DNA of 64,000 nucleotides from an uncultured delta proteobacterium (GTDB taxonomy: Bacteria; Desulfobacterota; BSN033; UBA1163): the NCBI GenBank assembly GCA_963827685.1, contig CAWHBU010000004.1, positions 704,001 through 768,000 on the forward strand, read 5' to 3'. Shown here in pieces: positions 28,645 to 46,497 of the stretch (the stretch's first letter is position 1; every line of letters begins with the position of its first letter). The translations under genes were made by a program, and so were the position numbers. A model generated the notes under the pieces. That model was not told where the DNA came from and searched no databases. It was given only the letters and a program-made list of their open reading frames with translations.

Positions 28645-30432
28645 ATGAAAGATTCTGATTCGAAGGTTCCAGATCAGAAAGAGTTAGAGAAGGAATTGAA
28701 CGAATACTTAGGTAAAAAGTATGGAGACCGAATTCGACTGGTCGTACCCATGCTCTTCCCAAAACCCCAGACAGAAGAAGTTTCGAAAGAAGAGAAGGAA
28801 CTGGGTGAGGGGAAGAAGAAGATTTATTTCGACTTAAAACCAGAGGAGTTGGAAGCTTTTCTGAATGATTACATCATTCGACAGGAAGAAGCCAAAGAGA
28901 TCCTGGCCACCAAAATCTGCACACACTTCAATCGGATCAAGTTTACTGAAATGACCAAGGGGCGCAATCGATATGAAGGGGTGGGCCATATCAAGAACAA
29001 TATCCTGATGATCGGTCCGACAGGTGTCGGCAAGACCTACCTGATTAAATTGATTGCTAAGAAGATTGGAGTGTCCTTTGTGAAGGGAGATGCGACGAAG
29101 TTCAGCGAAACTGGCTACGTCGGAGGGGATGTGGAGGACCTCGTCCGGGATCTGGTTTATGAAGCCAACGGAGATATTGAACTGGCTCAGTATGGAATCA
29201 TTTACGTGGATGAGATCGATAAGATCGCCTCATCGAACAACCTCATCGGTCCCGATGTTTCGAGAACGGGTGTTCAACGGGCTTTGCTCAAACCAATGGA
29301 GGAGACAGAGGTGGACCTCAAAGTCCTTCATGATCCAATCTCTCAATTGGAGGCTATTGAACATTACCGGAAGACCGGAAAGAGGGAGAAACGTACGATT
29401 AATACCAAGAATATCCTGTTCATTATGAGTGGAGCGTTCAATGGTTTGGAGGATTTCATCAAGAGACGTTTGAATCGGGAGGGCATTGGTTTCGGAGCCG
29501 AGGTTCGCTCGAAGGACGAACAAGCCGAGTATCTCAATCAGGTGAAGGCTGAAGATCTCATCGCCTTTGGATTCGAATCGGAGTTCATTGGAAGGCTGCC
29601 GGTAACCACCGTTTTTGAAAAACTGGAGGTTGACGACCTCTATGCAATCCTGAAAAATCCCAACAACCCTATTATCCTTGGAAAGAAGAAAGATTTCAAA
29701 TCCTATGGGATCGACATTCAATTCGAAGAGGAAGCCCTTTATGAGTTGGCAGTGAAGGCCTATGAAGAAAAGACCGGTGCGAGAGGATTGGTCAGTGCTG
29801 TCGAGAAGGTTCTCATCAAATTTGAAAAGCGACTTCCGTCCACCGATATCCGGAAATTTGTTGTCACACGGGAAGTGGTGGGAAACCCTGAACGGGAGCT
29901 AGAAAGATTGCTCCAGGATCCTTCGAACCCGGAGATGCAGGTTAAGTTTGAAATGCTCCTCTCCCAAGAAAACGTGGCCTTACGGGAATCCATCCTTAAC
30001 CGAGAGGCAGAATTTAAAAAACGCTATGGAATCATTTTCCGAGAGAATAGGATCGCTATCATTGTCAATCGGATGATCGAAAAAGGGTATGATGTCAACA
30101 CCGTTTTTGAAGAGGCAGTGGGGATTCAGCGACAGGTCGAAGAGTTTGAAATGGATTTTAAACGGAGGAATGGAATTTACCTTCAATTCAGCGAGGAGGC
30201 CATTGACCGGATTTCGGAGATGATCCTGAATGAAGATGGGAAAGCCGCAACGATCTTCTCGCGGCTTTCAAAGGATTATGAATATGGGTTGGAATTGATC
30301 AGCGATAAAACGAGTCAAAAAGAATTCATCATTACAAGAGAGGCGGTTGATAACCCAGAGGGATACCTCGACCGGACGATCCGTGAGATCTGCAGGCGAC
30401 AGTCAGACCAAAGGCTTGAGGGTAAAGAATAA
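28645..30432 (+). CDS. ClpX-like AAA+ ATPase lacking the Zn finger, with extended C-terminus
   Basis: GPTGVGKT, GYVG pore loop, YVDEIDK, IGF loop, TGARGL. Confidence 0.85.
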   Translation: MKDSDSKVPDQKELEKELNEYLGKKYGDRIRLVVPMLFPKPQTEEVSKEEKELGEGKKKIYFDLKPEELEAFLNDYIIRQEEAKEILATKICTHFNRIKFTEMTKGRNRYEGVGHIKNNILMIGPTGVGKTYLIKLIAKKIGVSFVKGDATKFSETGYVGGDVEDLVRDLVYEANGDIELAQYGIIYVDEIDKIASSNNLIGPDVSRTGVQRALLKPMEETEVDLKVLHDPISQLEAIEHYRKTGKREKRTINTKNILFIMSGAFNGLEDFIKRRLNREGIGFGAEVRSKDEQAEYLNQVKAEDLIAFGFESEFIGRLPVTTVFEKLEVDDLYAILKNPNNPIILGKKKDFKSYGIDIQFEEEALYELAVKAYEEKTGARGLVSAVEKVLIKFEKRLPSTDIRKFVVTREVVGNPERELERLLQDPSNPEMQVKFEMLLSQENVALRESILNREAEFKKRYGIIFRENRIAIIVNRMIEKGYDVNTVFEEAVGIQRQVEEFEMDFKRRNGIYLQFSEEAIDRISEMILNEDGKAATIFSRLSKDYEYGLELISDKTSQKEFIITREAVDNPEGYLDRTIREICRRQSDQRLEGKE

Positions 30433-30500
30433 TGGCAGCCAGAGATTATTATGATATTTTAGGCGTGAAAACCGATGCCAGCGATGAACAAATAAAGCGG
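30432..30500 (+). pseudogene. dnaJ: Truncated J-domain gene (first ~23 codons)
   Basis: MAARDYYDILGVKTDASDEQIKR, then loss of similarity before HPD; frame stops at 30563. Confidence 0.75.
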
Positions 30501-30537
30501 CGAGAAGATGAGGAAAAACTGGAAAAGGAGGTACGCA

Positions 30538-30648
30538 ATGGGAGACAAAGGCAAGAAGGATAAGGACAAGGGTCGGAAACAGAAGATAAATAAACAGGAA
30601 CAAAAGGCAAAAGGGAAGCTAGCGAAGCAACCGAGAAGAACCCCTTGA
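30538..30648 (+). CDS. Small Lys-rich protein (36 aa), MGDKGKKDKDKGRKQK...
   Basis: AAGGAGG RBS; below the ORF-track cutoff. Confidence 0.6.
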   Translation: MGDKGKKDKDKGRKQKINKQEQKAKGKLAKQPRRTP

Positions 30649-30872
30649 TAGAAAGCATGGTGAGGTGTCCGCCTCACCCATACGGTCAACATGGTCGTGT
30701 CCCTTGATGGACTGCCGTTCTCTCTTTCAATCGCAAATCATCAACTCTTATTACAACCTTGTCCTCACTCTTTGGTAGGTGCTATACGTAACAAAAAGGT
30801 GATTGAAAGTTAAGCTTATCAGGTTCATCATCTATCTGTATTTCCTATTGATTCAAAGGAAAGGAGATAGAG

Positions 30873-32036
30873 ATGGACCAGAGGGCTATAGAATATTGCA
30901 GCGTCATTCCAACGAATGAATCCCTGACGGAATTTAGAAGTATTGATCGACGGGAGGGGATTCACCCATCCATTTTTTTATCCAAGGCCCATAGAAGAAA
31001 ATCAGAGAGGCCGTGTTGTCCTGAGCTCGAGGCGAAGGCAAGAGCGTTTCAATGGGCACTGAATCGGGTTGCAGGCTGGGGCTTGCCGGGAAAAGAGCAC
31101 GTTGAGGGCTATTTGCGGGACATGTGTAGGCGGGGTCTCAGGCCAAAAACGTACTTCAGTAACCTGACCGCAATCTATATTTTTCTCACTCTTATTAGAG
31201 GTTCCGGAAAGACCCGTTTGGAGGAGATCACCAAGGATGATCTGGAGGTTTTTATTGAACATGAGCAGGATCGGGGGTTAATGATATCGACGGTGCGAAC
31301 AAGGCTTCACTGTGTCAATGCTTTTTTAGGCTATCTGATTGAAGCAGGTGCGATTCGTAGTAATGTTCTGGCAAGAAGAATTCGTCTGAGGAAGCCCGAG
31401 ACCTTACCGAGGGCCATAGATCCGGACGATGTGAAAGCATTACTTTCTGTTATCAACAATCCCAGAGACCGGGCCATGGTGATGGTGCTTTTACGGACGG
31501 GGATGAGAATCGGTGAATTGCTGAGTACCAGGATGCAGGATCTTCACCTCAAGGATCGAAGAGTGGATATCTACGAGGGGGAAAAGAACCGCATCGGAAG
31601 AGTGGTTTACCTCAGTGAAGATGCCATGCAGGCTTTGAAAGCCTGGATCAAGGTGAAGGATTCTCATAAAGTATATCTCTTTTATGCGACGGGCAAGAAC
31701 GCCATGTCCTATACGACCGCACACCTCATGTTCAAAGGCTACCTGACGAAAGCCGGTCTTGCCCATAAGGGGTATTGCCTCCATGCCCTACGACATACGT
31801 TTGCCAGTGAGCTTTTAAATGCCGGTATGCGCCTCGAATGCCTCCAACCGCTGATGGGGCATACCTCTGTGGATGTGACGCGGCGCTATGCGCGGCTCAC
31901 GGATAAGACCAGAGAGCAAGAGTACTTCAGAGCCATGACGATTATAGAAAGGGGGGAGCTGAATGGATCTTACCGACTCGATCATCAGGTACAGGCGTTT
32001 CTTGAAGAGAAGGAACGTCTCACCGAATACCGTTAA
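30873..32036 (+). CDS. Tyrosine recombinase A
   Basis: TGMRIGE, HALRH, MGH...RY. Confidence 0.92.
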   Translation: MDQRAIEYCSVIPTNESLTEFRSIDRREGIHPSIFLSKAHRRKSERPCCPELEAKARAFQWALNRVAGWGLPGKEHVEGYLRDMCRRGLRPKTYFSNLTAIYIFLTLIRGSGKTRLEEITKDDLEVFIEHEQDRGLMISTVRTRLHCVNAFLGYLIEAGAIRSNVLARRIRLRKPETLPRAIDPDDVKALLSVINNPRDRAMVMVLLRTGMRIGELLSTRMQDLHLKDRRVDIYEGEKNRIGRVVYLSEDAMQALKAWIKVKDSHKVYLFYATGKNAMSYTTAHLMFKGYLTKAGLAHKGYCLHALRHTFASELLNAGMRLECLQPLMGHTSVDVTRRYARLTDKTREQEYFRAMTIIERGELNGSYRLDHQVQAFLEEKERLTEYR

Positions 32037-32856
32037 GCACTATTTAAACAGTCTGAAGCACTTTGTTCTCTGGCTGGATGAGCCGATCGAAAAGGTCACC
32101 TACAGAAAGGTTGACGAGTATATGGATGACCTGCTTGGAAAACGGCTAAAACCTAAGACCGTCAACTGTTATCTCAACAGCATCTGTCAGTTTTACCACT
32201 ACCTCTGCGAAGAAGAGGGACTCCGGATCGTCAACCCTGTGAAGAAGCCAAATATCATGAAGCTTCCCAGAGGGCTTCCCAAACATCTGAGAGACGAGCA
32301 CATAGAGATCCTCTTCAAGCATCTGAAAGGGCGAAGGGATCAGGCCATCTTCACGCTCATGCTCCGATGCGGATTACGGGTAGAAGAAGTGGCTCACCTT
32401 TCCCTCAGCAATATTGATCTGAAACGCAGAATGCTGCTCATCCAGGATGGCAAGGGTGCGAAGGATCGGATTGTCTATCTCAGCAACGATGCCCTTCATG
32501 CTCTCCTGGAATATCTAAGGGTGCGACCCGCAAATAAAGTAAGAAAGGTTTTTCTTGTAGAGAAAGGGCCTCTCAGCGGGCAACCTTTATCCATTCGCGG
32601 CATCCAGAAACGGATGGAATATTATGCCCGCAAAACAAACTTGAGAATCTCCTGCCACCATCTTCGCCATACGATGGCAACGCAGATGTTGAATGCGGAT
32701 GCGGACCTCTCTACCATCCAGGATCTTTTGGGGCATAACTCTATCAGGACGACCCAACGCTACTGCCGGGTATCAAACCTCAAAGTACAGAGAGATTACT
32801 ACAAAGCCATGGAGGTGATCATGCAACGAACGGCTGGCAACCCAAATAATCCTTGA
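31963..32856 (+). CDS. Tyrosine recombinase B (XerC/D-like)
   Basis: CGLRVEE, GKGAK, HHLRH, LGH...RY. Confidence 0.92.
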   Translation: MDLTDSIIRYRRFLKRRNVSPNTVKHYLNSLKHFVLWLDEPIEKVTYRKVDEYMDDLLGKRLKPKTVNCYLNSICQFYHYLCEEEGLRIVNPVKKPNIMKLPRGLPKHLRDEHIEILFKHLKGRRDQAIFTLMLRCGLRVEEVAHLSLSNIDLKRRMLLIQDGKGAKDRIVYLSNDALHALLEYLRVRPANKVRKVFLVEKGPLSGQPLSIRGIQKRMEYYARKTNLRISCHHLRHTMATQMLNADADLSTIQDLLGHNSIRTTQRYCRVSNLKVQRDYYKAMEVIMQRTAGNPNNP

Positions 32857-32936
32857 CATGAGAAAGAAATTATGAAAACTTAAACACTACGCAACATCAT
32901 AATATCAATAGTAAATACGGATTATGTTACGTATAG

Positions 32937-32978
32937 GTAGGTGAACTGCACAGTCGGGTTTAGTTGTGAAACCCGGCC
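32937..32978 (+). repeat. 42-bp repeat with hairpin, copy 1
   Basis: 3 mismatches versus 41162-41203. Confidence 0.8.
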
Positions 32979-33098
32979 ACGAGCTTTTTAGAGTTTGATT
33001 AGAAAAATGGATTTTGTAGCGCCCATTTCACAAATCATCCAAACCATTTGCAACTTTTTCCAGAACCTCCTGACAGACTATACTATTTATGTGTGACC

Positions 33099-33962
33099 TC
33101 ATCCGAGTTCTGGTCCAGCCAGGGCGAAATGTTTCTGTGGATCGCCGGGCATGGAGTTTTCGCCGAGATACATGCGAGTCAAAGACCGCTGTACCGTAAA
33201 ACTTTGGTGTTTGGCCCAATCTATTGCCGCGGTATTTCGGTGCGGAATATCCCAAAAAATCCTTTGCCCACGACTATCCAGAAGCAGGGCTTCGATAAGG
33301 TGGATGCCGCTGTGAGAAGATGTGGCCACAACAGGGCCAATCTGCATTGCTCGGGAGCCTCCCCTCAGCAGGCCGTACCCGACAATTCGACCCGGTTTAG
33401 ATTCCAGAACCAATGCAGAAAGGCTTTCGTGTGCCAACGCCTGCAGGACCCTATTGCGGGAGACCCCGAATGCTTCGGCGTCAATCCGGTCAACCATAGG
33501 GATGTCTGTTTTCTGCCATTTCCTGATCCGCAAATCAGGCGTCAAGAGTGACGGAGGTGCATAAACTCCCTCCCACCGTGACAGGGTCCATTCGTCTTTG
33601 AAACCGAGGGCATCGTAAACCACCTTGCCAGCTGGTGTGGCGTCGAGCTTAATGCAACGAACATTGCGCCCCTGGAGGTATTTGATGCACACTTTCAGTA
33701 ATTCTGTGCCTATACCTCTACGGCGAAAGTCAGGATGGACCAGCAACATTCCGATCCAACCAAGCTCCTGTCCATATATCGTCGCTATGATAGTGCCGGC
33801 AGGCACACCATTCCATACAGCGACGAAACAACCGTTAGGTTCTGTCATCAGGTATCGCCGCCAATCCTCCAGACTTTGGTTCCAACCCTCCAGGGCGTGC
33901 AGGTGATCTGCAAACAGCAAGTCGTCAGCGGTCATTAAGCGCAGGTCAAGCGACTTGATCAT
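33099..33962 (-). CDS. GNAT family acetyltransferase (two-domain, YitH-like)
   Basis: VHPDFRRRGIG, LDAT..G..Y..LGF, IGPVVA. Confidence 0.9.
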   Translation of the reverse strand: MIKSLDLRLMTADDLLFADHLHALEGWNQSLEDWRRYLMTEPNGCFVAVWNGVPAGTIIATIYGQELGWIGMLLVHPDFRRRGIGTELLKVCIKYLQGRNVRCIKLDATPAGKVVYDALGFKDEWTLSRWEGVYAPPSLLTPDLRIRKWQKTDIPMVDRIDAEAFGVSRNRVLQALAHESLSALVLESKPGRIVGYGLLRGGSRAMQIGPVVATSSHSGIHLIEALLLDSRGQRIFWDIPHRNTAAIDWAKHQSFTVQRSLTRMYLGENSMPGDPQKHFALAGPELG

Positions 33963-36838: not shown

Positions 36839-36937
36839 AGTCCTCAAGTCAAGAATCCCTATCGCTATACCAGATTACAACTTGACCTTCCCCCGAGTTG
36901 ATGGACACACCTGAGAATTTGTATCATTGGACAGGAG

Positions 36938-37240
36938 GTGCGTATGGGGGAAAAGAATCGTCATTTCAGCCGTGAGTTCAAACGAGATGCAGTGCAGTTG
37001 GTCACAGAGAAAGGGATGCCGGTAGGCAAGGTGGCCCGAGAGCTTGATATCCATCCCAATCTTCTTCATCTATGGAGGAGGAGGTTCTTAGCTAAAGGGG
37101 ATAAAGCCTTCGTAGGGAAGGGCCGTGTAACGCCAGAGGAAGCGGAAATAAAGGGGCTCCGGAAGGAATTAGAAAAGGTGAAGGAAGAGAGGGACATTTT
37201 AAAAAAAGCCTTGGCCGTATTCTCCAAACGAAACAGATGA
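36938..37240 (+). CDS. IS3 transposase OrfA
   Basis: FSREFK..AV HTH; ERDILKKA. Confidence 0.9.
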   Translation: MRMGEKNRHFSREFKRDAVQLVTEKGMPVGKVARELDIHPNLLHLWRRRFLAKGDKAFVGKGRVTPEEAEIKGLRKELEKVKEERDILKKALAVFSKRNR

Positions 37241-38094
37241 AGTATCGGTTGATAGAAGAGCACAGAGAGACCTACAAGATAAGGAGTATGAGTGAAGTGT
37301 TGAAGGTATCCAGAAGTGGTTATTATGCGTGGAAGACGCGTCAACCGAGCACACGTCAGAAAGACGATGAGGAGTTGCTGGGGCACATACGGGAGATCCA
37401 CACTCAAAGCAGAAGGCTCTATGGGAGTCCGCGGATCGCAGCGGAGCTCAATAAGCAGGGTCTTAGATGTGGGAAGAACCGGGTAGCCAGGATCATGAAA
37501 GAGCACTCCATATGGGCAGAAGTGAAGAAAAAGAGATTCAGGCGGACTACCGATTCACGGCATCATTATGCCTTGGCTGCAAACTTACTGATTGACCAGA
37601 GGCAGACAGAGGGGGTATGGGCATCTGATATTACGTTTGTGCCCACTTCTGAGGGATGGCTCTATGTGGCAGCAGTGATGAATGTGAAAAGCAGAAAGAT
37701 CATTGGGCTGTCCATGAGCGATAAGCTCTCTCAGGAGCTAGCTTCTGCTGCGCTCAGGGACGCGGTGGGCAGGCAAAGCCCCTCTGAAGGGTTGATCCAC
37801 CATTCTGATCGAGGCAGGCAGTATGCAAGCTATGCCTATCAGGAGCTTTTAAGAGAATACGGCATGACTCCTAGTATGAGCAGAAGTGGCAATTGTTATG
37901 ATAATGCCTATGTGGAGTCTTTCTTTGGCACGCTCAAGACGGAGTTGGTCCATGGTGAGCGGTACCGTTCAAGGCTGGAGGCGAGGCTTAGTATTTTTGA
38001 GTACGTGGAAGTGTTTTATAATCGTCAGAGGAGTCATTCGGCATTAGGGTACAGGAGCCCAGAGCAGTATGAAAAGCTCCTTAATGAAACTTAA
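37237..38094 (+). CDS. IS3 transposase OrfB (DDE)
   Basis: YGSPRI, WASDIT, HSDRGRQY, DNAYVESFF. Confidence 0.93.
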   Translation: MKYRLIEEHRETYKIRSMSEVLKVSRSGYYAWKTRQPSTRQKDDEELLGHIREIHTQSRRLYGSPRIAAELNKQGLRCGKNRVARIMKEHSIWAEVKKKRFRRTTDSRHHYALAANLLIDQRQTEGVWASDITFVPTSEGWLYVAAVMNVKSRKIIGLSMSDKLSQELASAALRDAVGRQSPSEGLIHHSDRGRQYASYAYQELLREYGMTPSMSRSGNCYDNAYVESFFGTLKTELVHGERYRSRLEARLSIFEYVEVFYNRQRSHSALGYRSPEQYEKLLNET

Positions 38095-38240
38095 TCATGT
38101 GTCCACTTTTTCAGGGGAAGGTCAACTGATAATCCTCAAAAAGGTAATATTCACATGGCTATTTTCAGATTGACTGATACAACATTTCGTGATAAACACA
38201 ATTCAAATTGCATCATCCAACAAGAGAAAAGAAGGAGGAT

Positions 38241-38666
38241 ATGGAACTAGAAAAGAACAAAGCCATAGCGAGGCGTTTCAATCAGATTTGGAGCAAGGGG
38301 GATTTGAGTATAATAGACGAGCTTGCATCACCAGAAATTACCGTATACTATCCTGCGATGCCCCAAGTCATCAAGGGAATTGCAGCATTAAAAGAGTATT
38401 TTAGAAGATTCCCTTCGCTTTTTGGTGATGGGGATATTAAGGTTGAGGAGGAGATTGCTGAAGGCGACAAAGTAGTATTACGTTGGAGTTTTTCCTTCAC
38501 ACATCTAGGTGCCCTAGGCATCCCCGCAACTGGCAAGAGACTGAAATGGACGGGCATCTCAATCTACCGTATCGTCGGCGGCAAGGTCGTTGACGAAAGG
38601 GGGGAGGAGGATTATTTCGGAGCTTTTCGGGAGCTCGGTCTTATTCCGAAGCCTCCGACACAATGA
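38241..38666 (+). CDS. Ester cyclase/SnoaL-like protein
   Basis: IAEGDKVV, THLG..GIPATGK; AAGGAGG RBS. Confidence 0.88.
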   Translation: MELEKNKAIARRFNQIWSKGDLSIIDELASPEITVYYPAMPQVIKGIAALKEYFRRFPSLFGDGDIKVEEEIAEGDKVVLRWSFSFTHLGALGIPATGKRLKWTGISIYRIVGGKVVDERGEEDYFGAFRELGLIPKPPTQ

Positions 38667-38692
38667 ATAGCAGGGACATCCTAAACCAAATG

Positions 38693-38761
38693 AGCGAACC
38701 AGGGGTTGCACCGGATCGGCAGGAAACGGCTCCTGCCTCCCGGTGAACCCCGATGTTATAC
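38693..38761 (+). other. Integron attC-like site
   Basis: AGCGAAC...GTTATAC; GGGGTT(G)CACCGG/CCGGTGAACCCC arms with one extra base; inner GGCAGGA/TCCTGCC stem. Confidence 0.75.
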
Positions 38762-39335
38762 TCTTTTTCAAACGGAAATCGTCACCTCTTAACGCAGGCC
38801 GATCATCACTCTTTGTAGATGCAATCTTCACCGGGCATAGGATTTCCTTGGTGCTGTCTTTGATGATTAGCCTGGTTGCCCTCCTCGTTGACTCCTATTT
38901 TGAAAACGGACATCTACAACCATACCTCCTTATGCCTGGTCTCACCCTGTAACGTATCGGATACTCCTATCCTCCCATTTAAGAATCTTACTATTTTCAG
39001 GGGTAGTTCTGTCGATTACGGTCCGAAATCAATATACGGGTCCAAATGGAACCCCATTGGAGATTGTCAGGTAGGAAGTATGATCTCACCAATTGTCAAT
39101 AGAAATCTTCAGTCTTTGGGGTATGTATCCATAAACTCATGAACCGATCAATTGCCTATCTGGGGACATTCGGAGGTGCCCAATAGAATGTTACTACCAG
39201 AAGTCAATAATTGCTAGGTTTTAGAAAAACGTGTAGCTTCCAATTGGTAATCGATACTCCGCTTTCATTTTGATGAATAGAATTGGAATTCTTTTCCTTT
39301 TCGTGATATACTTCTTTTGGAATAAGGAGGGTATT

Positions 39336-39500
39336 TTGCCAAAACATGCTGGAGCTTATAAAGGCGAAAAACGGCGAAAAGAATTGTCCCGCCAGAAAAA
39401 ACGGGAAGAGAGAAGACAGCGACGATTTCAGAAAGGAGATCGCATCTCTTCAGACGCCGAGAAGGTCGAGCAAGAAGAGACAAAGCCAACCAATCCTTAA
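39336..39500 (+). CDS. Small basic coiled-coil protein
   Basis: AAGGAGG RBS before TTG 39336; EKRRKELSRQKKREERRQRR. Confidence 0.6.
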   Translation: MPKHAGAYKGEKRRKELSRQKKREERRQRRFQKGDRISSDAEKVEQEETKPTNP

Positions 39501-39823
39501 CTCGACACCCCTTTCCCGGAAAAAAGACTTCCTATCCTCCTTTACCACGAGTACTACAGAGTCCACCCCTCCAGTAAGGGAGGATGTGGTTTCATCAGGA
39601 ATGGGCAAGGCTGATACAATCGGTTGAAAGTGACTCGTGCGTGAGGACTCACACCTCCACATTGCTGAGGCGGAGCCGGATGGAATGAGGGAAATTGCTA
39701 GCCCATCCCCCCAAACGATTCGGACATTCAACAAAAGCAAGTAAACGTGGCGAACGCTGAATGGCGGGCGCTACCGATCAAAGGTCGTCGCCCAAGGCGA
39801 CGCAGAAAAGGAGCTAAGAAAGT

Positions 39824-40141
39824 ATGGCTAAAAAACTATTTGTAGGGGGTCTGAGCTGGGACACGACGGACGACGGCCTGCGCCAGGCGTTTGCGTCTTA
39901 TGGGGAAATCACTGAAGCCAAGGTCATCACACAGCGCGATACGGGGCGCTCCCGGGGCTTTGGATTCGTGACCTTCGCTCAGGATGACGATGCTAAAACG
40001 GCGATATCCAAGATGGATGGCACGAGCCTTGACGGCAAGACCATTAAGGTTAACGAGGCGCAGGAAAAGAGTCCTCGCGGAGGCGATCGATCCGGCGGTG
40101 GTTTTGGGGGCGGTCGTGGCAGCGAACGCAATCGCTGGTAG
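39824..40141 (+). CDS. RRM RNA-binding protein with Gly-rich tail
   Basis: RNP2 LFVGGL, RNP1 RGFGFVTF. Confidence 0.95.
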   Translation: MAKKLFVGGLSWDTTDDGLRQAFASYGEITEAKVITQRDTGRSRGFGFVTFAQDDDAKTAISKMDGTSLDGKTIKVNEAQEKSPRGGDRSGGGFGGGRGSERNRW

Positions 40142-40174
40142 TTCCGGCTACGCTCATCTATGGACATATTCTCC

Positions 40175-40204
40175 GAGCCGCCTCATCTTCTGGTGGGGCG
40201 GCTC
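40175..40204 (+). terminator. Hairpin after the RRM gene
   Basis: GAGCCGCCTCA...TGGGGCGGCTC; weak U-tail. Confidence 0.55.
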
Positions 40205-40452
40205 CTGTTCATAAAGCCGGAGAGCCTTTTAAATGAAATTACTGATTGTCTTTCAGGAAGGTGAAATTTCCTCAGGCTCGAAATGATAGCCGAAAAAACC
40301 AAATCCTCTCTCGGTTTTCCACGGACGCTGTCCGATGCACGCTTTCACTCGTTAATTGTCAATTTTCACTGCCCATAGATTTCAACGCTTTGTAATCGCC
40401 AAAAAAATAAATTCTATTCAATTTCCAAAGAGCGAGGCAGGATTAATAAAAA

Positions 40453-40968
40453 ATGCAATTCATCACAGAATATATCTTTTGCAAAAATAAATTAATTGAT
40501 TCGCTTGAAGAAGTTCAAGAAATTTATTCTGCTATAAAATCTGTCCGATGGTTTCGAGATAAGGTAACTGCTAAATACAAAACAGGCAAAGTTATTGCTT
40601 GGCAAGAAGCCTACAATCGTTTATTTGAAATTACTCTTGAGAAGATAGGCGGGTGGCAGACATCGACTGTTCTCTTTCAAAAGCCTATGCACAAAGGAGA
40701 ATTCTTGAAAAACGGTGTGTTTGTTGAAACACAATTTGGGAACTCATCTACAGTATATCGTGATTATTATAAATTTCATTATGGGTTTGCCAATAAACTT
40801 TTGACTTTAGTAGTCTTAATTGTTCCTACTGACCCAGTAAAGTTTTTTCCAAACCTTAACCCAAACATAATAATCAACATGGCATCGTTTAACTATGCTT
40901 TAGAATGTGTGCCTTCACTTACAATACAAGTTCCAGTATTATTAATGGGTCTTTTACCAAAAAATTAG
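40453..40968 (+). CDS. BglII/BstYI-like restriction endonuclease (orphan)
   Basis: FLKNGVFVETQFGN...YRDYYKF (ExQ motif); AT-rich. Confidence 0.65.
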   Translation: MQFITEYIFCKNKLIDSLEEVQEIYSAIKSVRWFRDKVTAKYKTGKVIAWQEAYNRLFEITLEKIGGWQTSTVLFQKPMHKGEFLKNGVFVETQFGNSSTVYRDYYKFHYGFANKLLTLVVLIVPTDPVKFFPNLNPNIIINMASFNYALECVPSLTIQVPVLLMGLLPKN

Positions 40969-41161
40969 AGTGTTTCAAGGTCAAAATTTCAGGCAATATT
41001 TATTGGTGGAGTGTTTCACTCTTCCAAAAAAGAGGTTAATATTCAATTGTTAAAGAGGTGGCAGGGTCAGATGGCTCTGCCTTTATTTTTTGGAACTTAT
41101 TCTCATGCTTGCTTTCTAATCGTAATCGTCAACCTCCAGGATGACAGTCGAGGGAAGACTT

Positions 41162-41203
41162 GTAGGTGAACTGCGCAGTCGGTTTTAGTTGTGAAATCCG
41201 GCC
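41162..41203 (+). repeat. 42-bp repeat, copy 2 (no element inserted)
   Basis: GTAGGTGAACTGCGCAGTCGGTTTTAGTTGTGAAATCCGGCC. Confidence 0.8.
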
Positions 41204-41499
41204 GCAATCCTTTCACAGATGGGTTAGAGAATTGGTTAGTTTGGCAAGGAAAACTGGCCAAGTGGAAAACTGAAGACGGCGGATTGTGGATAACCTGCGT
41301 AAATCGTGCTTTTGCGCCCGTAAAATCAAACCAAATTTGACCCTGTCAAGCGATCTCCGGAAGTGGATTATCTCATTTTTTCCCTGAAAATTATCTCCCT
41401 CCGCTACAGGCAACATCGGGGTTGACAACCTCCTCTTATTCGTTCTATTTTTAAGTCACCGGGCCCCAGAGCCCGATTCCTTTATCCGCCTACGCAGAA

Positions 41500-41705
41500 G
41501 ATCACGGCCTTTGGCCGCGGATGAATGCGTAAATCGTTGCAGAATCTATTATGAGCGGAGGTTTGGCTGCTCCGGCGGATTTCGCTGCTGGCGGATAACC
41601 CGCCGAAGCCTTGGCGCTTGCGCGCCGAAGCGCTACAGCGCCCAGGTGCGTAGGCGGGTATCTCACGGAGGTACCACGAGGCTTTGCCCGTGGAGGCTCC
41701 ATACG
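41500..41705. repeat. Nested palindromic repeat cluster
   Basis: ACCCGCC...GGCGGGT arms enclosing GCGCGCCGAAGCGCTACAGCGC; CCACGAGGCTTTGCCCGTGG. Confidence 0.6.
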
Positions 41706-41718
41706 CACCTGGAAAGAG

Positions 41719-42537
41719 ATGATCAAGATTGGGACGAGTGGTTTTTCTTTTCCGGACTGGAAGGGAACGGTTTATCCGGCAGGCATTCGGGAAAAGGATA
41801 TGTTATCCTTTTACGAAAAAGAGTTGGGGTTCAATGTCCTGGAGATCAATTTCACCTATTATACTCTTCCTTCTCAGAAGAGTCTGGCGGGAATGGCCCA
41901 AAAGACATCCGAGAGTTTTGAATTTGTGGTGAAGTCTTTTAAGGGGATGACCCATGAAATCTGGGATAAAGAGACCCGTTCGAGGATCGACAATCGGGAG
42001 ACCTTTAAGAAATTTAGATATGGCCTTGTTCCCTTGATAGAGGAGAAAAAACTCGCTTGTGTCCTGGCGCAGTTTCCTTATGGGTTTTTTCCCAATCGGG
42101 ATAATTTAGGCTACCTGGAAAGCTTCAAGGAGGAAATGATAGATACTCCCCTGGTTTTTGAATTCCGGAACCAAGCCTGGTTGAAAGAAGAGACCTTTCA
42201 ATATTTAGCGAAGAATGGGATTGGGTTTTGTGTGGTTGACGAACCCAAACTGCCCAATTTGATGTCCTACCATCCAAGGGCTACCTCGGAAATCGGCTAT
42301 TTCCGATTTCATGGCAGAAATCCCAATTGGTTCAATGTCCCGGTTAAGGTGCGGTATGATTATCATTACAGTGAGGAAGAACTGAAGGAATTCGTTCCAG
42401 GCATCAAGGATATTTCGCAGAAGACAGCAAAGACCCTAATCTTTTTTAATAACTGTTACTCCGGCTCTGCCGCTAAGAACGCCGCTCAGATGGCAAAGCT
42501 TTTAAATGCGGATTGTGGAATGCGGATTGCGGAGTAA
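41719..42537 (+). CDS. DUF72 (YecE-like) protein
   Basis: IGTSGF, EINFTYY, QFP, EFRN, YFRFHGRN, FFNN; last residues encoded by a heptamer array. Confidence 0.9.
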   Translation: MIKIGTSGFSFPDWKGTVYPAGIREKDMLSFYEKELGFNVLEINFTYYTLPSQKSLAGMAQKTSESFEFVVKSFKGMTHEIWDKETRSRIDNRETFKKFRYGLVPLIEEKKLACVLAQFPYGFFPNRDNLGYLESFKEEMIDTPLVFEFRNQAWLKEETFQYLAKNGIGFCVVDEPKLPNLMSYHPRATSEIGYFRFHGRNPNWFNVPVKVRYDYHYSEEELKEFVPGIKDISQKTAKTLIFFNNCYSGSAAKNAAQMAKLLNADCGMRIAE

Positions 42538-42610
42538 TAATTCTGAAATTCAAAACCAAATGCCAGGCAGTGAATTAAGATTCCGAAATCCGAAATCCGC
42601 AATCCGAAAT
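42505..42610. repeat. Gene-less inverted heptamer array pair
   Basis: (AATGCGG/ATTGCGG)x4, ~50 bp spacer, (CCGAAAT/CCGCAAT)x4. Confidence 0.9.
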
Positions 42611-42626
42611 AGGAAGGGGAGGAAGC

Positions 42627-43004
42627 GTGATCGAGATCGATTTTAAGAAAGGGGATGGACTCATCCCGGTCATCATCCAGGATGCCTCCACCAATGAGGT
42701 CCTGATGTTAAGCTACATGAGTCGAGAATCGTGGAAAAAGACGCTGGAAACGAAGAAGGCGTCCTTCTGGTCAAGGTCTCGCAAAAGAATTTGGGTCAAG
42801 GGAGAGACCTCCGGAAATTTTCAGGAAATTAAAGAGATTTATCTCGATTGTGATGGAGATACCCTCCTGCTCAAAGTAGATCAGATTGGAGGAGCGGCCT
42901 GCCATACCGGTTTTCGGAGTTGCTTCCATCGACAATTGGTAAAAGGAAAATGGAAGGTTATCGGAAGGAGAATCTTTGATCCGAAGGAGGTATATGGAAA
43001 GTGA
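42627..43004 (+). CDS. hisI: Phosphoribosyl-AMP cyclohydrolase
   Basis: SRSR..W.KGETSG, DCDGD, ACHTG..SCF. Confidence 0.96.
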
Positions 43005-43873
43005 AAATGCTGAAGGTTGGAATTCCAAAAGGGAGTCTGGAGAATGCCACCATTGAGCTTTTTAATAGGGCGGGATGGAAGATCACGGTGAGTTCTCGAA
43101 GTTATTTTCCCGTGGTGGATGATGACGAAATTCGCTGTACCTTGGCCAGGGCCCAGGAGATGTCAAGGTTTGTGGAGACAGGGACCTTGGATGTGGGGCT
43201 GACCGGGAAGGATTGGATTTTAGAAAATGGCTCCGACGTCGTGGTCGTTCAGGATTTGATCTACTCCAAGACCAGCCCTTCTCCTGCTCGATGGGTTTTG
43301 GTCGTAGCCGAGGATTCTCCCGTCCGTCAACTTAAGGATTTGAGAGGGAAAAAGATCTTCACCGAACTCGTCAATTTTACCAAGCGGTACTTTGCGGAGC
43401 GAAACATCAAGGTGGATGTGGAGTTTTCATGGGGGGCCACAGAGGGAAAGGTGATTGAGGGATTGTGCGATGCGATTGTGGAGGTCACAGAAACGGGGAG
43501 TACTTTAAAGGCGAACGGCCTCCGCATCGTGGAAGAATTGATGCAGACCAATACGCAGCTGATTGCCAATCGGACGTCCTATCAAGATCCGTGGAAAAGG
43601 GAAAAGATTGAGCAGATCTCGCTTCTTCTTCAGGGAGCCCTCCGAGCGGAGGGAATGGTGGGGCTCAAGATGAACGTATCGGCCAATGAGCTCAAGAGCG
43701 TGATGGAGATCCTTCCCAGCATCACCGGCCCCACGATTTCAAACCTTTTTCAGAGCGATTGGTTTGCTATCGAGGTCATGGTTTCGGAAAAGGTGGTGAG
43801 GGAACTCATCCCGCAGCTGTTAAAGCGGGGAGCAGTGGGGATCATCGAATATCCCCTCAATAAAGTCATCTAA
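43001..43873 (+). CDS. hisG: ATP phosphoribosyltransferase (long form)
   Basis: [29 protein letters not shown]; C-terminal regulatory domain. Confidence 0.96.
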
Positions 43874-43886
43874 GATTAAAAAATAG

Positions 43887-43990
43887 GTTAAGGTTTAGGT
43901 TTAGGTTCAGGTTAAGGTTAAGGTTAAGGTTAAGATAAAATAATAGAAAGGCCTTCCCTCAATCTCAACCTTAGCCTCAACCTCAACCTG
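43887..43990. repeat. Inverted hexamer arrays
   Basis: (GGTTAA/GGTTTA)x8, then (CTCAAC-like)x5. Confidence 0.85.
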
Positions 43991-45260
43991 GCTGCGTGAG
44001 CAGTCCCACCACTTCCATGTGATACGTCTGGGGGAACATATCGATGAGGCCGAGCCTCTGGAGGGAATATCCCCTCTCCGAGAAGAGGCGGAGATCCCGC
44101 GCAAAGGTAGTGGGTTCGCAAGAGACATAAATGATTTTTTTAGGTTTCCATCTGACCAACTGGTCCAGGATCGTTTTGCACCCTGTTCTGGGAGGGTCGA
44201 GGACGACGAGGTCGGGTGTTTCTTTTTTCCAATTCATAGCAACATCTTCTACCCTTCCATAAACGAAATCGCAGTTATTCATCCCATTTCTTTCTGCATT
44301 GAATTGGGCATCTTCGACGGCCATCCTACTCTCTTCGATCCCCAAGACCCCCCTCGCCCGGGTGGCCAATGGGAGAGAGAGGTTTCCCACGCCGGCATAG
44401 AGGTCGAAGACCCTATCCCGCTGATTCACCTCTGAGAATTGGAGAACGGTCTGAATTAATGTTTGATTCTGTTCCGGATTGACCTGGGAAAAACTCCCCG
44501 GCGAGATTCGAAGCTTAAAAGTTGTCTCTTGATACAAAGGGATCGTAAAATTCAGAACAGGGTCACCGAAAAGATTTAGTCCACCTTTTCTCGACAGGGC
44601 GATGCCCCGCAGGATCGGCTGACTCTGAAGGAACTTCTTCATAAAACAGTCGATCCGCTGATCATAGGAATGAGCGTGAAATAGAATAAGTCCTCTCCCT
44701 TCCTCTGGGGATACATTGATTTCGATCTCTTCCATGCGTGACAAGGCGGCTAATTCCACTCGGAGTTCTTGGATGATCTGATTGACCAGAGGATGTGAGA
44801 TGGGGCAGCGGTCGATCTGCACAATCTGATGGGACCTTTCTTGATAGTAGCCGATCGCTTTTCCCCTCACCTTCAGTTGAATTCGGATCCGGTAATCATA
44901 AGGCTTAGGCGAAAGGACTACTCTGATGGTAGGAATTTCCTTCAGCCTCCCCAATCTTTTGAGGATATCCCTTAAAATCTCTTTTTTTAGCTCCCCTTGG
45001 ATCGAATAGTCGATGTGTTGCCACTGGCAGCCGCCACAACTCCCGAAGTATGGGCAGGGAGGATTCACTCTCCAAGGAGAGGGTTTGATGATTTCGACTA
45101 ACCTCGCCATGGAGTATTTCTTCTTCTCATCCATAATCTCGATCCATGCCTCATCGCCAGTCACAGTGTGAGGGACGAAGACCACTTTGCCGTGGATTCG
45201 GGCCACGCCGTACCCTTTAAAAGCTACAGACTCAATAGGGACCTGAACTTTTTTCACCAT
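43983..45260 (-). CDS. rlmD: 23S rRNA m5U1939 methyltransferase
   Basis: TRAM domain, CPYFGSCGGC, FSQVN, LDPPR, YVSC, DMFPQT.H.E. Confidence 0.88.
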   Translation of the reverse strand: MVKKVQVPIESVAFKGYGVARIHGKVVFVPHTVTGDEAWIEIMDEKKKYSMARLVEIIKPSPWRVNPPCPYFGSCGGCQWQHIDYSIQGELKKEILRDILKRLGRLKEIPTIRVVLSPKPYDYRIRIQLKVRGKAIGYYQERSHQIVQIDRCPISHPLVNQIIQELRVELAALSRMEEIEINVSPEEGRGLILFHAHSYDQRIDCFMKKFLQSQPILRGIALSRKGGLNLFGDPVLNFTIPLYQETTFKLRISPGSFSQVNPEQNQTLIQTVLQFSEVNQRDRVFDLYAGVGNLSLPLATRARGVLGIEESRMAVEDAQFNAERNGMNNCDFVYGRVEDVAMNWKKETPDLVVLDPPRTGCKTILDQLVRWKPKKIIYVSCEPTTFARDLRLFSERGYSLQRLGLIDMFPQTYHMEVVGLLTQPG

Positions 45261-45642
45261 GGTTATAAATAGCACGGTGGGGAATGATATTCAACGGATT
45301 CAAGGAGGGGAAGGAGCTGTGATTCAGACAGTAAGACTATAGACCTCAGACATTAGACTAAAGAGGAGAGTTGGCCTCAAATTGCACAGAAATGAAGACC
45401 TATCAACCGTCAGGGGAGTTAGCGCTCTCGTTATGTATGAAAGAATTTCGAAGAAGCAAAAATGGTGAGGTAATTCCTCGTATTAAAAGAGTCTGAGGTC
45501 AAACGTCTGACCTGCTATCGAACAAGTTCTTTGGCAGGTGAGGGTCCGGTGTCTGCCTTGCAGGGAAAGGATAGGATGGATTGACATCTCGTCATGATTT
45601 TGTTAGTTTTAGTCACTTAAAGGGAGAGGGAGACCGGAGAGG

Positions 45643-46497
45643 ATGACCTGGTTTAAAAAAGGTGAAGAAGAAAGAGAAGAAAAAGAGAAACGAGAAGAGC
45701 TGAAGCCCTCTGACCAGCTTTGGGTGAAATGCAACTCTTGTAATGAGATCATCTATCGGAAGGTCATCGAACGGAATCTTCAAGTTTGCCCCAAGTGCAA
45801 CTACCATTTTCAGATCCCTGCTCGGAGGAGAATCGATTGCGTCGCGGACCCCGGGACCTTCATCGAATATGATGCGAACCTTGTCTCTACCGATCCTTTA
45901 GAGTTCAAAGATTCGAAGCGATATCCCTCTCGAATCAAAGAATCCCAGGAAAAGACCGGACATAAGGATGCCATCATCTGTGGGGAGGCGAGGATTGAAG
46001 ACCAGCCAGCAATGATTGGCATTTTCGAATTCAATTTTATGGGTGGGAGTTTGGGGTCGGTGGTGGGAGAGAAGATCACTCGCTTAATCGAACGAGCCAT
46101 CGAAAAGAGATTCGGTGTGATTATCTTCTGCGCCTCGGGCGGGGCAAGGATGCAGGAGGGTATCCTCTCTTTAATGCAGATGGCAAAAACCAGCGCGGCC
46201 TTGGCTAAACTTCATCAGGCGAGAATTCCCTATATCTCGGTGTTGACTGATCCCACCACAGGCGGAGTCTCCGCCAGCATCGCCATGTTGGGCGACATCA
46301 TCATTGCGGAACCCAAGGCGATGATCGGATTCGCAGGGCCCAGGGTGATTAAGGAGACGATTCGGGCCGAGCTCCCAGAGGGATTCCAACGTGCGGAGTA
46401 TCTTCTCGAACATGGGATGGTTGACCTGATTGTGGAGCGTAAGGATCTCCGACGCACGCTCGCCTCCTTTCTGGAAATGCTCAACCCAAAGAGTTAA
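45643..46497 (+). CDS. accD: Acetyl-CoA carboxylase carboxyltransferase beta subunit
   Basis: C4 Zn finger, [24 protein letters not shown]. Confidence 0.97.

Follow-up and report, generated by a model that had tools for sequence, protein, structure and literature searches.

A two-recombinase unit as a probable insertion-sequence-sized mobile element with a putative 7-bp crossover core in uncultured sediment bacteria

The table of a 2023 review sorts tyrosine-recombinase transposons into five groups, namely ICE/IME, SE, GInt, RIT and Tn554-like (PMC10214605), and none of these, as that table presents them, has the small size of an insertion sequence (IS), nor does any consist of just two recombinases without a helper gene. 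Here, we describe a family that has exactly this composition, starting from a unit in a 64,000-nt stretch of DNA from an uncultured delta proteobacterium (assembly GCA_963827685.1, contig CAWHBU010000004.1, positions 704,001 to 768,000), referred to below as the window. The unit occupies window positions 30782-32936, measures 2155 bp from end to end, and encodes two tyrosine recombinases, A and B, between perfect 12-bp inverted ends, with the 7-mer GTAGGTG directly outside each end. It is, very probably, an autonomous IS-sized mobile element, in which the end-7-mer-end joint of an excised circle would recombine with a matching 7-mer elsewhere in the genome.

The closest described systems are best introduced through their gene content and their cores, following the sections of the cited papers that deal with them. 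SEs are defined by four core genes, intA, tfp, intB and srap, are at least 7 kb long with cargo, have a 6-bp centre and are found only in Gammaproteobacteria; on their integration the central bases of attB pass to attL and those of the circle to attR, and the 6-bp footprint is listed as a feature shared with Tn554 (PMC10214605). Tn554 itself combines two tyrosine recombinases with site-specific insertion and a short core footprint that is carried from site to site, but it needs TnpC, one of its recombinases is unusually large, and it carries resistance cargo (PMC10214605, PMC3414803); the actinobacterial Tn554-like pairs treated in PMC3414803 likewise include one very long protein. RIT elements are described as three genes in a fixed order (PMC3414803, PMC8138268), with two core-binding domains in RitA and an extra C-terminal helix in RitC (PMC8138268). 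TnPZ of Helicobacter has a 7-bp direct repeat, AAGAATG, at both ends and a single copy of it at empty sites, together with 13-bp inverted ends, a single recombinase (XerT), one word only and tens of kilobases of cargo that include a type IV secretion system (PMC2731543). The 'bipartite modules' (BIMs) were considered as a further comparison and set aside, since the account of them in PMC3414803 pairs one recombinase with an unrelated protein. No system in these four papers is a cargo-free pair of genes about 2 kb in length.

The genome that holds the window (G000; 5.23 Mb in 14 contigs, estimated completeness 94.5%) has three copies of the unit with identical boundaries (Table 1), and because all three end at exactly these positions the unit is not a chance arrangement. 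In the window, the terminal 12-mer with up to one mismatch occurs only at the two ends, against a shuffle expectation of 0.10 and with two occurrences reached in 2 of 100 shuffles. An earlier note on this DNA, made from the letters alone, had described a 2155-bp unit with perfect 12-bp inverted ends and GTAGGTG on both flanks, and both observations are borne out by the exact coordinates and by the three genome copies; counted with its 7-bp core, the mobile unit comes to 2162 bp. The flanks of the three copies are unrelated except for the 7-mer, which in copy 3 is exact on the right and replaced by a deviant word, ..AGTAGTG, on the left. Orthologues of the sequence to the right of copy 3 are present in G010:C2 and G004:C96 (83% identity over 1.5 kb), with GTAGGTG as the exact starting point of both alignments; a copy of an intergenic motif precedes it, and the element is absent. 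These two loci are thus empty orthologous copy 3 sites with a single GTAGGTG, so that the other copies and the empty sites for which the earlier note had called were both found, the latter in two related species. Flank orthologues of copies 1 and 2 in related genomes match on one side only, and no empty site with 500-nt flanks was found among the fetched loci or in the host genome. Several other genomes are also multi-copy, with at least four copies in G010, at least three in G002, four in a Nitrospiraceae genome and at least six in a Smithellaceae genome. The element is mobile, as supported by the three near-identical copies, the empty orthologous sites, the multi-copy genomes and a contig with a head-to-tail junction that is described below; with a length under about 2.5 kb, mobility genes only, defined ends and several copies per genome, it is also an insertion sequence in the operational sense. 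A lone exact terminal 12-mer at G000 C3:65282 has no adjacent 7-mer or genes, where by our estimate about 0.6 chance matches fall in 5.2 Mb.

The same unit recurs far beyond this genome. When one genome from each species was scanned, with aligned A proteins as the query, 305 stretches that encode a relative of A were found, the best 80 of which were kept for locus analysis; paired ends (at most 2 mismatches, 1.8-3.5 kb apart) are present in 55 of the 80 loci, and in most of the others a contig end interrupts the locus. Together with the copies in G000, G002, G010 and G019, the kept loci gave 54 complete elements of 2048-2551 bp that have 22 nt or more of flank. Two frames of at least 280 codons are present in 50 of them, the other four being decayed, and no third frame recurs among the 54. 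The earlier note had proposed a distinct recombinase-pair element and had named a third gene in every homologous locus, or differing boundaries, as what would speak against it; the 54 relatives instead share boundaries of the same kind and two genes, and the proposal stands. The hosts are mostly metagenome-assembled genomes of four groups (Smithella, Smithellaceae and Syntrophales; Desulfobacterales; Syntrophobacterales; Thermodesulfovibrionales and Nitrospiraceae), and the few host bins that bear unexpected labels were treated cautiously. Among the relatives of A in a large protein collection, the best 120 have 70-94% identity to it and lengths of 373-388 aa, and nearly all lie on contigs of 1.3-3.5 kb under no other name than 'integrase/recombinase XerD' or 'tyrosine-type recombinase'; a level of E <=1e-20 is reached by more than 7000 protein clusters, a count that includes generic Xer relatives. 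Many metagenome contigs of 2-3 kb contain just this unit, and the family is very common in wetland and sediment metagenomes. A plasmid collection gave a single distant match at 37% identity, and a full-text literature search, with subscription journals, supplementary files and ISfinder outside its scope, returned no description of a two-recombinase family of about 2 kb. The family is a large one of uncultured sediment bacteria for which we found no published description.

Genes A and B overlap by 74 nt, are the sole long frames inside the unit and are probably translationally coupled. Pfam Phage_integrase (PF00589) matches both, each with E ~6e-36, and SAM-like core-binding domains are recognized above the cut-offs in B and weakly in A. 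The catalytic residues are R212, K238, H304-x-x-R307, H330 and Y339 in A and R139, K164 or K167, H232-x-x-R235, H258 and Y267 in B; they are invariant in the family alignments and align with the active-site positions of XerA and XerD, which places both proteins among the simple, Xer-like members of the tyrosine recombinase superfamily. Two overlapping recombinase genes with the R, HxxR, H and Y residues, as first read from the sequence, are therefore confirmed by the frames, by Pfam and by the family alignments. The two proteins are only 28% identical to each other. Their closest solved structures are Pyrococcus XerA (4a8e), E. coli XerD (1a0p) and Thermoplasma XerA (5hxy), and in NCBIfam they resemble XerA, XerC and XerD while scoring far under the curated cut-offs (for B, 201 vs 335 with XerC; for A, 149 vs 220 with XerA and 136 vs 335 with XerC).

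The two flanking 7-mers agree at all seven positions in 43 of the 54 elements, at six in five and at five in three, with one element each at four, three and two. Among the complete elements there are 16 different right-flank words, which include GTAGGTG, CACCTAC, CTTCCTG, CTTGCCA, CATGTCG, CAAATAC, CATACTT and CTGCTCT. With the 16 words mapped as states onto a FastTree phylogeny of 50 B proteins, no fewer than 15 changes are required, and the major words group into clades; elements with GTAGGTG make up a monophyletic group (12 rows, support 99), and the clade with CTTCCTG is its sister. Members of one lineage have the same word, other lineages have other words, and on these comparisons the 7-mer is best taken as a crossover core rather than as a target duplication, in agreement with the tyrosine-recombinase crossover region that the first reading of the window had suggested. 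At about 63% nucleotide identity, the G002 and G010 elements share these 12-bp ends, but their flanks carry CACCTAC, which is GTAGGTG read on the other strand, and they fall in a distant clade of the B tree; one and the same host word is thus used, in opposite orientations, by two element lineages of a single host genus. The two words that flank an element always point the same way, and for a tyrosine-recombinase site with its polarity in the spacer such an arrangement should lead to the excision of a circle instead of an inversion.

The imperfect pairs add a polarity to this picture. Tallied from the listing of elements, and with the lineage's word defined by the majority among relatives, 11 pairs are imperfect: the lineage word lies on the right, after gene B, in eight (copy 3, L048, L058, L059, L064, L068, L097 and L099) and on the left in one (L102), while two (L024 and L072) are undecided. 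Across the eight cases with the lineage word on the right, the target agrees with the core at positions 1 to 7 in 4, 3, 4, 5, 6, 7 and 8 of 8, respectively, and this rise towards position 7 means that homology is kept next to the left end of the element.

A mechanism can be put together from these observations. Recombination between the two junctions would excise a circle whose joint reads right end-7-mer-left end, a lox- or dif-like site with palindromic arms of 12-16 bp around a 7-bp spacer, and the circle would integrate where this spacer meets a matching word inside a weak palindrome, GATTT-N7-AAATC. Strand exchange would start at the border between the 7-mer and the left end, where 2-3 bases of homology are retained throughout and a few would be needed for ligation, and the second exchange may be dispensable or tolerant, or else be replaced by replication of the Holliday junction; the target word would consequently be left at the left junction and the element's word at the right. 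The established mechanism of tyrosine recombinases is the basis on which we place the start of exchange and allow tolerance in the other exchange. In the host genus the matching word is found at the end of an abundant intergenic motif, a position that would provide harmless landing sites for the element.

Direct traces of the joint were sought by scanning metagenome contigs for a right end, seven bases and a left end, which returned three loci. One of these, L128 (2246 nt), consists of 44 nt of flank, the word ACAGGAA, a 2150-bp element with both genes, ACAGGAA once more and then the first 38 nt of the element again; it is a head-to-tail junction, from a circle or a tandem pair, in a relative whose proteins are 45% (A) and 54% (B) identical in amino acids. 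The circular intermediate that the earlier note had predicted may have a counterpart in this relative; for the window copy no circle joint was seen in the assembled contigs of four public runs (X1, X2, X3 and X5), which drop rare forms. In run X2 a 2168-nt contig spans exactly 30776-32943, as would be expected if all copies in the sample shared only the 7-mer beyond their ends, and other contigs from the runs show the flanks of copies 2 and 3 and one flank foreign to G000. Locus L047 was considered as a tandem pair and rejected, its second 'end' being a lone 11/12 look-alike with no genes behind it. The other two loci of the scan, L126:1090-1120 and L127:1911-1941, each hold a lone perfect palindromic site of 16 + 7 (CACCTGC) + 16, with right-end sequence on both sides; this site sits beside a reversed motif copy, at the position where such a copy would end, and has no recombinase genes within 2.6 kb.

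How the donor site fares is the point at which an SE-like course would part from the one above. In this copy-out/copy-in variant of the same mechanism, for which nothing but what happens to the donor site is different, exchange is limited to a single strand, the donor copy is retained where it was and the intermediate is a circle that is nicked or derived from a single strand. We regard it as a genuine possibility, though not the more probable course. Inheritance of the 7-mer (8 of 9) has the polarity reported for SEs in the section of PMC10214605 concerned with their integration, the genome copies are near-identical, and no empty-site joint of the window copy appears in the contigs of the four runs; contigs, however, cannot show rare empty sites, so this absence says little, and SEs need four genes where there are two here.

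The readings that do without an autonomous element fare much worse. Paired tyrosine recombinases are known chiefly from RIT, Tn554, GInt and SE, at least in the portions of PMC3414803, PMC8138268 and PMC10214605 that treat them, and the unit could accordingly be a decayed remnant or a module of something larger, such as a trio that has lost a gene or the integration module of an island; yet 54 complete elements of 2.05-2.55 kb with the same ends and only two long frames, metagenome contigs that contain just the unit and flanks that differ at every copy make this very improbable. It is harder still to credit that the unit is a passive repeat moved by a transposase encoded elsewhere, with the 7-mer as an ordinary target-site duplication: inverted ends with a short direct repeat are typical of DDE-type insertion sequences, and the genome does have active IS3-family elements, but the 7-mer is the same across the copies of a lineage and different between lineages, its pairs are sometimes imperfect in a polarised way, and the ends and both genes occur together across proteins down to about 50% identity. 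An invertible switch of the fim or shufflon type, flipped by the recombinases it encloses, has in its favour that inverted repeats bracket the recombinase genes, and is equally hard to credit, given the direct orientation of the asymmetric 7-mers, which predicts excision, the three dispersed near-identical copies with unrelated flanks, the empty orthologous sites, the lack of any backward (strand-changing) joint in the contigs of the four runs and the absence of an outward gene to control, the downstream acetyltransferase gene being convergent.

Several points nevertheless weigh against the autonomous element with a recombining circle joint, and they are best considered together. The empty sites belong to other species and not to strains of the host species, and at copy 3 an IS3-family insertion has disturbed the left flank. 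L128 is a single contig in which circle and tandem pair look alike, and its proteins share only 45% and 54% identity with A and B. Neither a circle joint nor an empty-site joint of the window copy occurs in the contigs of the four runs, from which rare forms are dropped. The flank bias is drawn from just nine determinable cases, in which the lineage word is set by the majority of relatives, and promoter-like sites in the window copy are no commoner than in shuffled sequence.

In G000 the unit lies at the 3' end of an intergenic motif of about 70-83 nt with the consensus ..GTTATGCTCTCTTTCAATCGGTAATCGTCAAC..(~25 nt)..CTTTGTAGGTG, for which an iterated nhmmer profile, specific to the host genus, finds 45 copies in the genome. 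These copies follow terminator-like hairpins and often form clusters on one strand, with spacings of 1-8 kb and with small genes that are unrelated to one another (SnoaL-like, RRM, BglII-like, DUF72) on either side. Fifteen of the 45 end in an exact GTAGGTG, and they account for 15 of the 280 GTAGGTG words in the genome, while all three insertions in G000, together with those in G002 and G010, are placed at the 3' end of the motif. By hidden Markov model, the motif abuts two of the three G000 copies, and the orthologous empty sites of the third carry it; by the same measure it abuts four of 13 GTAGGTG-type sites and three of four CACCTAC-type sites (7 of 17 together), and none of the sites with other words. 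Family-wide, the reconstructed targets form a weak palindrome, T(-9)..GATTT-N7-AAATC..A(+9), at 0.2-1.1 bit per position, which differs from the arms of the element (..CGTATAG-N7-CTATACG..). A consensus fold of 31 motif copies gave no structure on either strand, and Rfam had no match in 30300-33300 and two in 38000-46000, both under their gathering scores (E 0.075-0.081).

Because the target arms differ from the element arms and two recombinases are present, one may speculate that A and B divide their labour between the two kinds of arm. Carried further, this becomes a reading in which integration is re-addressable, the carried 7-bp spacer mainly setting the target and having been rewritten at least 15 times, with one recombinase on the element arms, the other on the target arms and hybrid junctions as the result. 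We put this forward tentatively and think it unlikely as a whole; were it true, seven changed bases would retarget a 2-kb, two-protein integrase system.

Compared with the systems introduced above, the element seems to resemble SEs, Tn554 and TnPZ in mechanism, and its gene content places it outside each of them. With SEs it has in common a left-end operon that encodes two catalytic tyrosine recombinases, short inverted ends, target specificity and the polarity of the core, with the lineage word at the right junction in 8 of 9 determinable pairs; in contrast to SEs, it is a cargo-free pair of genes with a 7-bp centre, and the hosts of the family belong mainly to Syntrophales, Desulfobacterales and Nitrospirota. 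With Tn554 it shares the recombinase pair and the site-specific insertion; its polarised core inheritance (8 of 9) resembles the footprint that Tn554 carries from site to site, but the word here is constant within a lineage rather than derived from the site, and for a counterpart of TnpC there is neither room for a third gene nor a conserved third frame. Tn554 is also not known to have inverted ends, whereas those of the element are perfect 12-bp repeats. RIT elements have inverted ends, as this family does, and are similarly compact and made only of simple Xer-like tyrosine recombinase genes; here, however, there are two such genes in place of three, with two long frames in the window copy and no third frame that recurs in the 54 relatives. 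The 7-bp word of TnPZ finds its parallel in the 43 of 54 identical pairs and in the single GTAGGTG at two empty sites, whereas two recombinases, no cargo and at least 16 lineage-specific words distinguish the new family. Finally, Xer proteins, whether XerC/XerD acting at dif or single-Xer systems, are the closest in sequence and structure, and the layout of the predicted circle joint, with arms around a centre of 6-8 bp, is that of dif and lox; three copies in G000, NCBIfam scores under the cut-offs and identical instead of different arms set the element apart from a chromosomal Xer/dif system.

This combination makes the family a minimal system for studying what certain elements require two tyrosine recombinases for, and in what way target choice and strand bias are set by a short spacer, and an integrase pair addressed by 7 bp could serve as a tool. 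There are also practical consequences for annotation, as the current XerC/XerD or 'integrase' labels on genes of the family mislead surveys of dif and Xer, and as elements of the family break assemblies.

The internal layout of the element is conserved in the order left inverted end, promoter-like block, inner repeat, gene A, gene B, inner repeat, right inverted end and 7-mer (Table 1). Family-wide, conservation of the 12-bp ends extends to about 16 bp, and across subfamilies a TTGAC.. block and a GGTCAT(C/T)ATCT block are conserved about 17 nt apart; in the window copy these two blocks correspond to the TTGAAA-17-CATCAT of the promoter-like site. The inner repeat has an 18-bp family consensus, (A)TCTGTTTTTCTTATTGA, and is set in from the left end by about 53 nt and from the right end by 14-31 nt. 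Its two arms match on average at 14.6 of 18 positions within an element and at 12.6 of 18 between elements, so that it is read as a conserved second site with no clear covariation; base-pairing between the arms as a covarying helix was accordingly rejected, the arms reflecting a shared consensus. The extra inner site of the earlier note, TACGCAACAT, is present in the window copy, but relatives retain just an xTAACx box, so that this detail is weakly supported.

Table 1. Positions of the element, its copies and its associated features (window coordinates unless a contig of G000 is given)
Feature	Position	Strand	Remarks
Left 7-mer, GTAGGTG	30775-30781	+	Taken to be the crossover word that belongs to the target
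Left terminal inverted repeat, CTATACGTAACA	30782-30793	+	Exact, 12 bp
Promoter-like site, TTGAAA-17-CATCAT, inward, upstream of gene A	30803-30831	+	Score 9/12; putative function
Inner inverted repeat, left arm, ATCTGTATTTCCTATTGAT	30834-30852	+	19 nt, 89% complementary to 32904-32922
Gene A, tyrosine recombinase	30873-32036	+	387 aa; variable N-terminal extension of ~75 aa
Gene B, tyrosine recombinase	31963-32856	+	297 aa; plain Xer-like architecture
Inner site, TACGCAACAT	~32889-32898	+	Relatives keep only a short xTAACx box, loosely
Inner inverted repeat, right arm, ATCAATAGTAAATACGGAT	32904-32922	+	Distance to the right end 14-31 nt in most of the family
Right terminal inverted repeat, TGTTACGTATAG	32925-32936	+	Exact reverse complement of CTATACGTAACA
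Right 7-mer, GTAGGTG	32937-32943	+	Read as the core carried along by the element
Element, copy 1	30782-32936	+	GTAGGTG on both sides
Element, copy 2	C2:700942-703096		Identical to the window copy; GTAGGTG on both sides
Element, copy 3	C1:55745-57899	opposite to the window copy	3 substitutions
Intergenic motif copy at the element	30708-30781	+	Ends ...CTCACTCTTTG-GTAGGTG; nhmmer C4:734708-734779
Further motif copies	38740-38818, 41092-41166		

Some further observations concern the motif itself. Its layout resembles a cassette array, yet it is not palindromic like attC. About 35-45 nt past the GTAGGTG of the motif, many copies have ..CTTTCTTCCTG(A/T)A(G/A)TC.. (for example at G000 C3:119627, C8:53365 and C2:1093521), a stretch that includes CTTCCTG, which the sister lineage of elements has as its core word, and different lineages may target different words within one repeated intergenic unit. 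Another motif copy, at G000 C3:1194414 (minus strand), precedes GTAGATG and an 11/12 match to the left end of the element (CTATACGTAAC), which continues into ordinary downstream sequence without recombinase genes; this could be a footprint or a remnant, or else a target one of whose arms resembles that of the element. At L016:3062-3110 (G024:C5), a motif copy with GTAGGTG is followed by about 50 nt of a G002-type right end, inverted, and nothing further; this is a truncated remnant at the same kind of target.

To the right of the window copy of the element, a GNAT acetyltransferase gene (33099-33962, minus strand) has no DNA match among 40 related genomes, and the element therefore borders strain-specific DNA. 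An IS3-family element of 1.26 kb, with an HTH_Tnp_1 frame and an rve frame, lies at 36883-38134 and has at least nine genome copies at 99-100% identity, with sites at G000 C1:43433, C2:1091288, C2:1106604, C3:400396, C3:478459, C5:107049 and C8:59912 and beside copy 3, where an IS3-family copy stops some 40 nt short of the element's left end. To the left, synteny with G009, G010 and contigs of runs X2 and X3 stops at 30711/30712, exactly at the start of the motif, and the continuation in these sequences matches G000 C8:61752-63052 at 92.5%, beside another motif copy; this break is either a rearrangement at motif copies or an assembly join. Immediately before it, at 30497-30712, is a 215-bp stretch with a hairpin and a lysine-rich frame of 36 codons (30539-30649), which is 91-96% identical at several places in other genera, where the neighbouring AAA+ gene reaches about 85%, and has a summed depth of 943 vs 60-100 in run X5; it may be a conserved small gene or RNA.

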